The position numbers and the translations under genes were made by a program. From a virus (Duplodnaviria > Heunggongvirae > Uroviricota > Caudoviricetes), in the IMG/VR virus record IMGVR_UViG_2778261035_000003: a DNA stretch of 4,534 nt; one strand, written 5' to 3'. Below, in pieces: positions 1 to 4,470 of the stretch (position 1 is the stretch's first letter; each line of letters starts with the position of its first letter). Under the pieces are notes generated by a model. That model searched no databases. It was not told where the DNA came from and saw only the letters and a list, made by a program, of their open reading frames with translations.

Positions 1-104
1 AGTGGATTGTCCCCTTTAACGTCCCCAGACCGCTAACGACGCATGTGCCATACGCCGTGTTACAACCAAATTTTGTTAGTACCTTGTTTGTTTGTCTGGA
101 AAGA

Positions 105-158
105 AAGATAAAATGAAGTTGCGCATTATGCAAGTGTTTTTGTTGCGAGATATGCAAT
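105..158 (-). promoter_or_regulatory. Candidate distal operator pair (OL-like) with possible leftward promoter
   Basis: Seen in sequence: two 15-bp sites of form TTGC-N7-GCAA, TTGCGCATTATGCAA (119-133) and TTGCGAGATATGCAA (144-158), matching the TTGCGCGTTAAGCAA site in the repressor/cro intergenic region (926-940). On the minus strand a -35-like TTGCAT (plus 133-128), 17-bp spacer and -10-like TATCTT (plus 110-105) would drive leftward transcription. Promoter assignment is inference. Confidence 0.3.
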
Positions 159-170
159 TTAAAGGGTAAT

Positions 171-192
171 GAAAAGCCACCTTTGGGTGGCT
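171..192 (-). terminator. Putative intrinsic terminator downstream of the repressor gene
   Basis: Seen in sequence: plus-strand GCCACC(176-181)-TTTG-GGTGGC(186-191), optionally extended by an A175:T192 pair. Read on the minus strand this is GCCACC-CAAA-GGTGGC followed by TTTTCATT, about 20 nt past the repressor stop (213-215). The stem is short (6-7 bp) but GC-rich. Confidence 0.45.
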
Positions 193-212
193 AATTGATG
201 AGGAGGTAAGGG

Positions 213-905: not shown

Positions 906-1002
906 GCGTTTATTACATTTCTTTATTGCGCGTTAAGCAAATCAACTTGCGCAAAATATTTGCGTGAAATAATATGCTCATCACGCAATATGTGGAGGTC
1001 AT
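906..1002. promoter_or_regulatory. Divergent immunity control region (OR-like operators with PRM-like and PR-like promoters)
   Basis: Seen in sequence: operator-like motifs TTGCGCGTTAAGCAA (926-940), palindrome TTGCGCAA (947-954), and inverted repeat TTGCGTGA (960-967) / TCACGCAA (981-988). Candidate rightward promoter: -35 TTGCGC (947-952), 17-bp spacer, -10 TAATAT (970-975), then SD GGAGG (994-998) before the cro ATG at 1003. Candidate leftward promoter: -35 TTGCTT (plus 940-935), -10 TGTAAT (plus 917-912), placing the start at or next to the repressor ATG (leaderless), with no SD upstream. Confidence 0.6.
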
Positions 1003-1263
1003 ATGCAATCACCATTACGGAATGTGCGTAAGGCGCACGGATTTACTTTGCAGCATGTTGCTGCTGGCGTTCAGGTCAATCCAGCGACGCTGAGTCGTAT
1101 TGAAAGACTGGAACAAATTCCATCTATCGATCTTGCAGAACGTCTGGCCAATTTTTTTAAGGGTGAAATCAGCGAAATGCAGATTCTTTATCCGGCACGT
1201 TTTCAATCTAGCCAAAACCAGAATGGGTTTAAACCACAGGAACAGGAGGTAAGCCGTGGGTAA
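1003..1263 (+). CDS. Cro-like HTH_XRE transcriptional regulator
   Basis: 86-aa ORF divergent from the repressor. HTH motif FTLQHVAAGVQVNPATLSRIE. SD GGAGG lies 4 nt upstream of the ATG. First gene of the rightward operon. Confidence 0.85.
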   Translation: MQSPLRNVRKAHGFTLQHVAAGVQVNPATLSRIERLEQIPSIDLAERLANFFKGEISEMQILYPARFQSSQNQNGFKPQEQEVSRG

Positions 1264-1807
1264 GCATCATTGGAAAGTGGAAAAACAACCTGAGTGGTAC
1301 GTGAAAGCTGTCAGAAAAACTATCGCGGCATTGCCTGGGGGTTACGCTGAAGCTGCTGACTGGCTGGATGTAACAGAGAACGCTTTATTCAACCGCCTTC
1401 GTGCAGATGGCGATCAGATTTTCCCGTTGGGATGGGCAATGGTTTTACAGCGTGCTGCTGGCAATCACCACATTGCGGATGCTGTCGCACAGTCTGCTGG
1501 TGGGGTGTTTGTATCACTTCCTGAAATTGAGGAAGTAGAGAACGCCGATATCAACCAGCGCCTGCTGGAGGTCATTGAACAGATCGGCAGTTATTCAAAA
1601 CAGATTCGTTCAGCAATTGAAGACGGGGTGGTGGAACCACACGAGCAGGCAGCAATTAACGACGAGCTGTACATGTCAATTTCGAAGCTGCAGGAGCATG
1701 CAGCACTGGTCTACAAAATCTTTTGCGCTCCAGAAAAGAGTGACGCCCGCGAGTGTGCAGCTCCGGGCGCCGTGGCGTTTTGTGTCTGTGGAGAAACTAA
1801 CGCATGA
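1256..1807 (+). CDS. Phage CII-like regulatory protein (CP76 / YmfL-like family), GTG start
   Basis: 183-aa ORF with GTG start at 1256 preceded by SD GGAGG (1245-1249, 6-nt spacer). It overlaps the cro stop by 8 nt, consistent with translational coupling. Position directly after cro and the central and C-terminal sequence character (LPEIEEV...LLEVIEQIGSYSKQI) resemble phage 186 CII-type regulators. Family assignment is from memory, not a search. Confidence 0.75.
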   Translation: MGKHHWKVEKQPEWYVKAVRKTIAALPGGYAEAADWLDVTENALFNRLRADGDQIFPLGWAMVLQRAAGNHHIADAVAQSAGGVFVSLPEIEEVENADINQRLLEVIEQIGSYSKQIRSAIEDGVVEPHEQAAINDELYMSISKLQEHAALVYKIFCAPEKSDARECAAPGAVAFCVCGETNA

Positions 1808-2952
1808 ACAGTTTAACGGCAAATAACCGTTTGCCGCAACAGCTGGTGGTCAGCGTGGCTGAACACCTGTTGTTACGGCATGAATGCAGATTATCAAATC
1901 ACCTGGCTGTAAGTAACCACAGAGAACTTTACCTGACTGTGGGGGGCGAGTTGTGCAGGAACTTAACTGCTGGTTTCGTGACGGAAGAGGGCTTTATGTC
2001 CATGTTATTCGTTGGGAGCCAGAAACACAGCGCGTTATCTATCTTCGCAAAGACTACCCGCATGAGTGCTTTAGTCCTTTGTGGAAATTCAGGCGTGATT
2101 TTGTTGAGTGCGAAGAACCACCAGCACATTGATTCTGTCATTCCGGGACGTTACACTGTTCAGGCACCTTATAAAGCGGGTGCCGGGATTGGCGTCCTGG
2201 AAATGTTATCGGCGATATATGACGCGCCAGCGTCTTTTTTATCGTCTGCGTCTGCGCACACCCAAATTATGGTGGGCTGGACGGGGGCACCGAAAGGTGC
2301 GCCGGTTTCCGATAACGCCGGTTACGCCAACCCCGTTCAGTTCACCACCAGCGAAATTGGCGTTTCCGGTGGTGAAGGTAATTCACTGTTATCGGAGGCT
2401 GCCATCATGGCTACGATCCCTGCCTTAGTACAACCTGAACTTTGCATTATTGCAGGCAAAGTTGTTACTTCTTCTCTGGCTGTTGCTAGTTATTTCGGCA
2501 AACAACACAAAAACGTAATTCAAAAAATTGCGTCTCTTGAATGCTCTGCCGAATTTACAGAGCTGAATTTTCAGCCCAGTGAGTACATCGACGCATCAGG
2601 CCGCAAACTACCTTGCTATCAAATAACCCACGACGGCTTTGCGTTTCTTGCTATGGGTTTCACGGGTAAACGTGCTGCCCAGTTCAAAGAGGCATACATC
2701 TATGCCTTTAACCAGATGGAGAAACAGCTTTCAAATCCCTCTGTACCGAGCGACGTTGCACATAACGCCAGCGTTCTCTGTTCCTACATTTCATCAATTC
2801 ATCAGGTCTGGCTGCAGCAGCTTTATCCTATGTTGGCAAAAGCCGAATCTCCGCTGGCTGTTAGCTTGTATGACTATATTAATGATGCTTCGGCACTGGC
2901 CTGCCTCATAAATTTGTCGCTGAACCCTTCAGAGGTAAGGGGGCGCAAATGA
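1804..2952 (+). CDS. 382-aa ORF: N-terminal region of unknown function fused in frame to a C-terminal Rha-family (Phage_pRha) regulatory domain; possible internal start at 2407
   Basis: Frame is open for 1149 nt with GC-rich third positions throughout. Start ATG 1804 overlaps the upstream stop (ATGA). Residues about 205-300 (IIAGKVVTSSLAVASYFGKQHKNVIQKIASLECSAEFTELNFQ...YQITHDGFAFLAMGFTGKRAAQFKEAYIYAFNQMEKQL) match the Rha domain. A strong internal RBS GGAGG (2394-2398) sits 8 nt upstream of in-frame ATG 2407, which would give a 181-aa protein with the usual N-terminal Rha placement. Confidence 0.6.
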   Translation: MNSLTANNRLPQQLVVSVAEHLLLRHECRLSNHLAVSNHRELYLTVGGELCRNLTAGFVTEEGFMSMLFVGSQKHSALSIFAKTTRMSALVLCGNSGVILLSAKNHQHIDSVIPGRYTVQAPYKAGAGIGVLEMLSAIYDAPASFLSSASAHTQIMVGWTGAPKGAPVSDNAGYANPVQFTTSEIGVSGGEGNSLLSEAAIMATIPALVQPELCIIAGKVVTSSLAVASYFGKQHKNVIQKIASLECSAEFTELNFQPSEYIDASGRKLPCYQITHDGFAFLAMGFTGKRAAQFKEAYIYAFNQMEKQLSNPSVPSDVAHNASVLCSYISSIHQVWLQQLYPMLAKAESPLAVSLYDYINDASALACLINLSLNPSEVRGRK

Positions 2953-3173: not shown

Positions 3174-3988
3174 GTATGGAGCTGATGGTTAAAGCGATGA
3201 AAATTCGAGTGGGTAATCCATTGCGAAAACTGGTTCTGATCAAGCTGGCTGATAATGCCAGCGATCAGGGGGAGTGCTGGCCCAGCTACCAGCATATTGC
3301 TGACCAGTGCGAGATTAGCAAACGTTCTGTGATGAATCATATTGCGGCCCTTTGTGAGTCCGGGCTGGTAAAAAAAGTCACCCGGAAAGGCGAAAAAGGT
3401 AACTCAAGTAATATCTATCTTCTTCATCTTGATGGTGCAGGAGATTCACTAGGGGGTAGTGCAAATAATTCACTATCTGGTGCAGCAAATTCACCAGGTA
3501 GTGCAGGAGTTACACCAGGGGGTAGTGCAGGAGATTCACCCAGAACCAGTCACTCTTTTGAACCAGTCAATGAACCAGTCAATGAACCAATAGCTGTTGG
3601 TGCATCTGCTGATGAGTCTGTGCGAGTTCGTTCAAACCGACCGGAATACTCTCCGGAGTTTGAGCAGGCATGGCTGGCATATCCCAAACGTGCTGGTGGC
3701 AATTCAAAATCAGCGGCCTTCAAAGCCTGGAAAGCCCGTTTGAACGAGGGGGTAAACCCCGAAACCATGCTGGAAGGTGTGAAACGCTACGCGGGCTGGG
3801 TATCTGCGATGGGTAACAGCGGCACACAATTTGTGAAACAGGCTGTCACGTTCTTTGGTCCGGATCGTCATTTCGAAGAATCCTGGGAAGTTCCTGCGGT
3901 ATCGGCAGCCAGATGCGAAGACCCGTACTTCAAAGCCAGTTACAACAATGTGGACTATAGCCAGATCCCGGCAGGGTTCAGGGGGTGA
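3170..3988 (+). CDS. Putative phage replication initiation / replisome-organiser protein (N-terminal winged-helix HTH_36-like domain, Gly/Ser-rich linker, C-terminal DnaT-like region)
   Basis: 272-aa ORF. ATG 3170 overlaps the upstream stop (ATGA) with SD GGAGG (3159-3163). N-terminus (LRKLVLIKLADNASDQGECWPSYQHIADQCEISKRSVMNHIAALCESGLVKKV) matches the HTH domain typical of phage replication initiators. The central low-complexity linker is encoded by iteron-like DNA repeats. The C-terminal assignment (FEQAWLAYPKR...KAWKAR) is from memory and less certain. Confidence 0.8.
   Translation: MSMELMVKAMKIRVGNPLRKLVLIKLADNASDQGECWPSYQHIADQCEISKRSVMNHIAALCESGLVKKVTRKGEKGNSSNIYLLHLDGAGDSLGGSANNSLSGAANSPGSAGVTPGGSAGDSPRTSHSFEPVNEPVNEPIAVGASADESVRVRSNRPEYSPEFEQAWLAYPKRAGGNSKSAAFKAWKARLNEGVNPETMLEGVKRYAGWVSAMGNSGTQFVKQAVTFFGPDRHFEESWEVPAVSAARCEDPYFKASYNNVDYSQIPAGFRG
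3435..3539. repeat. Iteron-like array: five quasi-palindromic 15-bp cores GTGCA-N5-TTCAC at 21-24 bp spacing (candidate origin of replication)
   Basis: Seen in sequence: cores at 3435-3449 GTGCAGGAGATTCAC, 3459-3473 GTGCAAATAATTCAC, 3480-3494 GTGCAGCAAATTCAC, 3501-3515 GTGCAGGAGTTACAC, 3525-3539 GTGCAGGAGATTCAC. They lie inside the replication gene's linker-coding region, and local codon choice is atypical (gga, tca, cta, agt, aga, ata), suggesting a DNA-level constraint. Function as an origin is inferred by analogy with lambda ori inside gene O. Confidence 0.4.
3543..3590. repeat. Direct repeats of GAACCA(GTCA): four copies, the last three forming a 12-bp tandem GAACCAGTCAAT x2.6
   Basis: Seen in sequence: copies starting at 3543, 3560, 3572 and 3584. 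They encode EPVNEPVNEP in the replication protein and sit immediately downstream of the iteron-like array. Confidence 0.7.
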
Positions 3989-4470
3989 TCATGAGCCTGA
4001 TGAGTGAGATTCAAAAATTCATTGAAAGCAATCCTGGATGTACGACCGGTGATATTGCGAACGCGTTTGCATACTTTCCACGTCCCCGTGTACTGAATAC
4101 GACCAGTAAGTTACGCCAGTGCAGACGTGTCGCTTATCGTAGTGAAGGCAAAACACACCGGCATTTTTCTCGCAAGGCTGTGTTGCCACCTGAGCCGGTG
4201 CTGAAGCATATGAGTGTGGCCAGTAAAAGCTACGTCGGCACTAATGATCAGCGGGTGATTTTGCGCCTGATTCAGCAGGCAGAAGATCTGGAGTCAAGAG
4301 GTTTATTTCGTCGTGCTGCAACGGTGTGGATGGCGGCATTCCGTGAAAGCCACTCCCAGCCAGAACGAAACAATTTTCTGGCACGTCGTGAGCGGTGCTT
4401 ACGGAAAAGCAGCAAGCGCGCTGCATCGGGTGAAGAGTGGTATCTGTCAGGGAATTTCGTGGGGGCTTAA
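3985..4470 (+). CDS. PerC-family-like transcriptional regulator (prophage-encoded, YfdN-like)
   Basis: 161-aa ORF. The C-terminal motif AEDLESRGLFRRAATVWMAAF resembles the conserved LE..G.WRRAA..W core of PerC/Pch regulators (recalled, not searched). Start is either GTG 3985, overlapping the upstream stop, or ATG 3991 preceded by GGGGG (3981-3985); the ATG may be the true start. Confidence 0.65.
   Translation: MIMSLMSEIQKFIESNPGCTTGDIANAFAYFPRPRVLNTTSKLRQCRRVAYRSEGKTHRHFSRKAVLPPEPVLKHMSVASKSYVGTNDQRVILRLIQQAEDLESRGLFRRAATVWMAAFRESHSQPERNNFLARRERCLRKSSKRAASGEEWYLSGNFVGA

Follow-up and report, generated by a model that had tools for sequence, protein, structure and literature searches.

A probable two-site left operator beyond the repressor gene in the SfII/mEp460-type immunity module of lambdoid prophages

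What is the role of operator-like sites that are located beyond the 3' end of a phage repressor gene, on the far side of that gene from the region in which the repressor is expected to act? The question is raised by the window analyzed here (the whole stretch of viral DNA, 4,534 nucleotides), a 4.5-kb early regulatory region of a lambdoid prophage with SfII/mEp460-type immunity (Table 1). Positions 1-1300 share 96-99% identity with PhiR63_1, mEp460, phiSTEC1575-Stx2k, and Stx2a_1447/WGPS2 and 91% identity with Shigella phage SfII; the same immunity type is also found in Stx2a and Stx2k phages, and the module (positions 60-1010) is present in 1040 of 5426 complete E. coli genomes. Two other assignments were considered and rejected: the e14 (ymfK/cohE) immunity of K-12, in which the repressor and cro are sized as in the cdtI type and only the ymfL-like genes are in common with the window; and the SfV immunity, because the window matches SfII, whose cI and cro are unlike those of SfV and SfIV (PMC3851460). 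Literature searches found no paper or annotation that describes the operators of this immunity type; apparently, they are so far undescribed. With the module in about one-fifth of the complete E. coli genomes, and with some Stx2-converting phages carrying it as well, a map of its operators can help to predict immunity groups and induction behavior.

Table 1. Predicted regulatory features and genes in the window, in order of position.
Feature	Positions	Strand	Remarks
5' part of leftward leader RNA	1-97	-	from candidate PL; 1-77 common to heteroimmune phages; hairpin 1 at 37-57
Candidate PL -10 hexamer TATCTT	105-110	-	17 nt from -35 hexamer; predicted start near 97-98
OL1, promoter-proximal left site TTGCGCATTATGCAA	119-133	.	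exact motif; covers PL -35 hexamer and 9 nt of spacer
Candidate PL -35 hexamer TTGCAT	128-133	-	same sequence as operator arm of 119-133
OL2, promoter-distal left site TTGCGAGATATGCAA	143-157	.	exact motif; 24 bp start-to-start from OL1, upstream of -35
Repressor intrinsic terminator	175-192	-	hairpin and U run, between repressor stop and left operator
CI-like repressor, 230 aa	213-905	-	Pfam HTH_3/HTH_26 and Peptidase_S24
Candidate PRM -10 hexamer TGTAAT	912-917	-	predicted; 17 nt from TTGCTT (940-935)
OR3-like site TTGCGCGTTAAGCAA	926-940	.	exact motif; kept in 158/158 haplotypes
OR2 position	947-961	.	palindrome TTGCGCAA (947-954) contains PR -35 TTGCGC
OR1-like site ATGCTCATCACGCAA	974-988	.	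over PR -10 hexamer and start; one-mismatch match
cro-like HTH gene	1003-1263	+	gene calls, Pfam
CII/CP76 (YmfL-like) gene	1256-1807		gene calls, Pfam
ORF with Ash and Rha domains	1804-2952	+	gene calls, Pfam
DnaD-like replication gene	3170-3988		gene calls, Pfam
PerC-like gene	3985-4470		gene calls, Pfam

Exact matches to the 15-bp dyad TTGC-N7-GCAA occur at only three places in the window, 119-133, 143-157, and 926-940, and all three are located within the ~310 nt of intergenic DNA that flanks the repressor gene. The initial annotation had identified two left sites of this form; the coordinates of one (119-133) stand, but the other was placed at 144-158, one base off the exact match. Its comparison of the left sites with 926-940 is borne out when the bases are read from the sequence (13/15 and 12/15 in common). 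The three exact matches compare with 0.27 expected, at least three being found in 1 of 200 dinucleotide shuffles, and an unseeded repeat search returns the same three sites as the top direct-repeat family (D1). When one mismatch is allowed, a fourth intergenic site appears at 974-988, over the -10/+1 region of the rightward promoter; at this stringency the whole window contains 7 sites versus 3.9 expected, and the count alone is no longer significant. No third left site is detected at one mismatch, and positions 95-109 contain nothing that is motif-like. The left sites are located 56-94 bp past the repressor stop codon and, as had also been claimed, beyond the repressor terminator: the hairpin and U run have a folding z-score of -4.4, and the stem has compensatory changes in relatives.

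We collected 241 loci with repressor homologues that are 66-100% identical; these represent 158 distinct flank haplotypes from viral contigs and from species-representative genomes of Shigella, Citrobacter, Pseudescherichia, Klebsiella, Buttiauxella, and Trabulsiella, with E. coli included. Two exact [T/A]TGC-N7-GCAA sites are located ~92 and ~69 bp beyond the repressor stop codon in 146 of the 158 haplotypes, although these counts overstate independence because many haplotypes are closely related, with roughly six distinct identity classes. Two left sites within one mismatch are found in 154 haplotypes, and in all but one of these (153/154) the start-to-start spacing of OL1 and OL2 is 22-24 bp. 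The operator arms are invariant (near 2 bits), whereas the flanks and the five bases at the center are free to vary (e.g., TTGCGTAACGTGCAA, TTGCGAAATGCGCAA, and ATGCGTAAAACGCAA). The recognition helix of the repressor (AANISRLETGKQK) is nearly invariant in the same set of homologues; together with the invariant arms, this fits one protein that reads one arm sequence. In ~1 Mb of distinct related loci, the motif has a density of 31.8 per kb for the OL zone, 24.7 per kb for the OR zone, and 0.061 per kb elsewhere, which corresponds to a ~500-fold enrichment in the two operator zones.

The right operator is organized around the same motif. The distance between the OR1-like and OR3-like sites is 48 bp in 158/158 haplotypes. 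At the OR2 position, only the 8-bp palindrome is invariant (the first eight positions are near 2 bits), and the right arm is degenerate in the window (ATTT); in relatives with <73% repressor identity, this position is occupied by a full site with one mismatch. The resulting operator map has the consensus [T/A]TGCG-N5-NGCAA, with two sites in OL, and two full sites and a half-site in OR.

Which promoter would the left sites control? The initial annotation had proposed that both overlap a leftward promoter; this holds for 119-133, which covers the -35 hexamer and part of the spacer of a candidate PL, and fails for 143-157, which is upstream of the promoter. Among the relatives, the PL -35 hexamer is TTGC[AG][TC] in 152/153 haplotypes, and T1, A2, and T6 of the -10 hexamer are invariant at a spacing of exactly 17 nt in 153/153 (TATCTT in 97, TAATTT in 34, TATTGT in 11, and others). 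The candidate PL matches the consensus at only 7 of 12 positions and is not flagged by a simple consensus promoter scan; PR is built alike and is an equally weak match (TTGCGC at 947-952, 17 nt, TAATAT at 970-975). In relatives with ~70-73% repressor identity, the conserved, covarying leader RNA of the window type (described below) starts 2-3 nt past the predicted start, which supports this placement of the promoter. Alternative registers, with the -35 hexamer in 143-157 or with CATAAT (130-125) as the -10 hexamer, were rejected; neither has an acceptable partner hexamer at 16-18 nt. In mEp460, no other promoter-like site for the early-left operon is found within 1.2 kb leftward. No operator site is located over the -10/+1 region of PL, so repression would depend on occluding the -35 hexamer.

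On the other side of the repressor gene, the right arm of the OR3-like site would be the -35 hexamer (940-935) of a candidate PRM; the complement of its -10 hexamer, ATTACA, is kept in every relative compared. The predicted PRM start is the A of the repressor ATG (905), so the repressor mRNA would be leaderless. In our reading of the sequence, the putative PL, PR, and PRM each use an operator arm (TTGC..) as the -35 hexamer with a 17-nt spacer. From this shared build, and from the repeat pairs D7 and I9, the arrangement OL2-OL1-PL, read leftward, appears to mirror OR2-OR3-PRM.

The left sites are also located within the part of the genome that is exchanged with the repressor. Over positions 1-77, the window has 99-100% identity with phages whose repressors are unrelated (cdtI, 2H10, Ayreon, and Stx2c phages), and this homology ends at ~77; thus, the left sites belong to the immunity cassette and travel with the repressor. 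Phage cdtI has other palindromes, both in the corresponding 100 bp and in its OR. Several remnants have lost the left arm of the module. Two loci (L089 and L177) contain repressor/OR modules in which the OR sites are kept and the left sites are absent, with a host tRNA-Ser gene ~210 bp past the repressor stop codon; in a third (L090, from Klebsiella spallanzanii), a single left site is located beside an apparent host coding sequence. The absence of left sites where the left arm is missing ties them to the leftward operon and not to expression of the repressor.

We therefore consider it likely that 119-133 and 143-157 are a two-site OL that controls the PL of the SfII/mEp460-type immunity module. 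The initial annotation had recognized an OL/PL-like control point here, and its reading is upheld by the retention of position, spacing, and arms in homologues down to 66% identity, by the enrichment of the motif in both operator zones, by the fixed 17-nt separation of the -35 and -10 hexamers, and by the location of the sites inside the immunity cassette. In a lysogen, dimers of the HTH/S24 repressor would bind the two 15-bp dyads. Adjacent operators in lambda have the same 22-24 bp spacing, so pairwise cooperativity between dyads that are 24 bp apart is plausible. Repressor bound to the proximal dyad, over the PL -35 hexamer (133-128) and the adjoining spacer, would silence the early-left operon; in this operon, a long structured leader would precede genes of unknown function in the direction of xis/int. 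The repressor contains Ala99-Gly100, Ser144 (in GDSM), and Lys181, as expected for a RecA-inducible, autocleavable protein of the CI/LexA type; RecA-stimulated (SOS) self-cleavage between Ala99 and Gly100 would relieve repression of PL and PR at the same time. The operator sites are probably shared with Cro.

The same sites could do more than this, or something else. Repressor bound at OL may also pair with repressor bound at OR via a ~800 bp loop (a lambda-like octamer) that would tighten repression of PR and PL and help to fill the OR3-like site to limit PRM; we hold this possibility only tentatively. The geometry permits looping: operator clusters with adjacent sites are present on both sides of the repressor gene, two adjacent full OL sites are 22-24 bp apart, the OL1-to-OR3 distance is ~807 bp in the window and is held at 800-810 bp across relatives, and the OR3-like site overlaps the candidate PRM -35 hexamer; also, looping is established for lambda CI (PMC5977221). 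However, the constant OL-OR distance reflects nothing more than how long the repressor gene is, the window has only a half-site at the OR2 position, and the repressor and OR persist in remnants that have no OL. Cooperativity is not universal among such repressors, and that of 933W lacks even short-range cooperativity (PMC5977221). Comparison with solved structures gives only weak HTH and UmuD matches that are uninformative about oligomerization or contacts of the C-terminal domain.

It is quite unlikely that the left sites mainly serve as a roadblock or insulator that halts read-through from PRM/PRE into the early-left genes. They do follow the repressor terminator on the same strand, at a distance of 18-70 bp, which would suit such a role, but a roadblock needs no -10 hexamer with invariant T1, A2, and T6 at exactly 17 nt from an operator arm, and the early-left operon would be left without a promoter-like site in the 1.2 kb that was searched; a roadblock effect could, however, coexist with promoter control. 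That the palindromes are RNA/DNA hairpins or chance repeats that bind no protein is extremely improbable: each dyad could form a stem of 4-5 bp, but on neither strand does 115-161 fold better than shuffled sequences (z -1.2 and -1.6), the arms keep their sequence and do not covary while the centers vary, and the same ~500-fold enriched motif is located over the OR promoters.

The layout of OL and PL is textbook lambdoid, and nothing in it goes conceptually beyond the lambda paradigm unless looping or the leader RNA behaves unusually. As in lambda, copies of the OR dyad are located beyond the repressor gene, overlapping the leftward early promoter (a candidate promoter here), ~24 bp apart, and inside the immunity region; both systems have an HTH/S24 autocleavable repressor (predicted here) and a cI promoter that apparently gives a leaderless transcript. 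In contrast to lambda, there are two left sites instead of three, none is over the -10/+1 region, and the 15-bp dyads have another sequence; the OL-OR distance is ~0.8 kb versus ~2.4 kb in lambda because the rex genes are absent here. P22 immC contains only the repressor gene between its two operator clusters, giving a compact spacing as in the window; its operator sequence and number of sites are different, however, and P22 has an N-like gene, 24. No N gene is known in the phage group to which the window belongs (PMC3851460). The left operator of the Stx2 phage 933W is also a lambdoid left operator without OL3 (PMC5977221), although its repressor and operator sequences are unrelated to those of the window; given this example, the three-site arrangement of lambda is no defining feature of lambdoid left operators. 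HK022, also from a phage group without N, has a structured leader RNA (putL) directly downstream of PL (PMC9378689); the window-type leader has no sequence similarity to the HK022 PL region, and antitermination is only a hypothesis for it.

The leader downstream of the candidate PL is ~160 nt long and is also found in heteroimmune phages; it continues to the left of the window, as in mEp460 (L001, ~3840-4000). Its fold over 11 diverse versions contains four hairpins, with compensatory changes in 7 of 33 pairs and an invariant unpaired GUAGCCGGAAUGUGCAAG. Neither window positions 1-212 nor the window-type (class B) leader in mEp460 match any Rfam family. The first leftward gene in mEp460 (phrog_204, function unknown) starts ~600 nt downstream of PL. 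A strong 13-bp hairpin with a U run, on the leftward strand of mEp460 and ~470 nt downstream of PL, resembles an intrinsic terminator.

A second, unrelated class of leader (class A; GCAGGACGCCCACGAAGUAGCCGCCGGUGGCAUACGAAUGACCGGAUGAUUCGC) is located downstream of PL in SfII (L002), L206, L115, L141, and other loci. Its stem covaries (CCGGU/ACCGG, CCCGG/CCGGG, CCCCA/UGGGG), and it is often followed by a hairpin and the boxA-like sequence CGCUCUUUAACAA. Class A leaders are also found in SfV, SfIV, SfII, ST64B, ZF40, Yersinia YeP phages, and SPN3UB, and are annotated in none of them. No Rfam match was obtained for class A in the two loci scanned (L115 and SfII), and a blastn-short comparison of both leader classes with the HK022 putL region found no similarity.

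The window-type leader may act in antitermination, a role that we put forward only as a hypothesis. A broader version is rather doubtful: the two-site OL would gate a promoter constructed like PRM, with the -35 hexamer supplied in each case by an operator arm and a further site 21-24 bp upstream; the ~160-nt leader, common to heteroimmune phages without N, would be a novel element for antitermination without a protein, resembling put in role but not in sequence, that allows transcription to pass the terminator ~470 nt downstream; and OL might loop to OR over ~800 bp with two sites.

Two small-RNA matches are located in the early-left region. The ArcA-regulated sRNA-17 of E. coli K1 (193 nt; PMC7719688) maps, according to its published supplementary alignment, into the PL leader (L001, ~3630-3822), ~180-370 bp to the left of window position 1; one of its ends coincides with the leftward-strand hairpin and U run described above. 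In SfII, a segment of this region (L002, 2148-2363, minus strand) matches the Salmonella sRNA STnc100 in Rfam, but below threshold (39.5 bits versus a gathering score of 47).

Two further observations concern the DNA to the right of the operators. Codons 8-12 of cro contain the palindrome GTGCGTAAGGCGCAC (1024-1038, plus strand). Among relatives whose repressor is <73% identical, 29 of 58 distinct sequences have an exact operator match (TTGCGAAAATCGCAA) there, and in the lineage of the window both outermost bases have changed symmetrically. Judged by sequence, this palindrome may represent a fourth operator, ~40 nt beyond the PR start, or may simply result from conservation of the coding sequence.

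Within the ORF at 1804-2952, Rfam identifies matches in 2141-2352 (plus strand) to the C4 antisense RNA (2265-2352, 82.8 bits) and isrK (2164-2240, 63.7 bits), with a weak match to the c4 a1/b1 target (2151-2203); all three are just upstream of the part that encodes the Rha antirepressor. This looks like an RNA-controlled antirepressor module that resembles P1/P7 immI. The Pfam Phage_ASH match (aa 117-212, nt 2152-2439) covers the same DNA as the RNA genes, which raises the possibility that no real protein is encoded by the 5' half of the 382-aa ORF.
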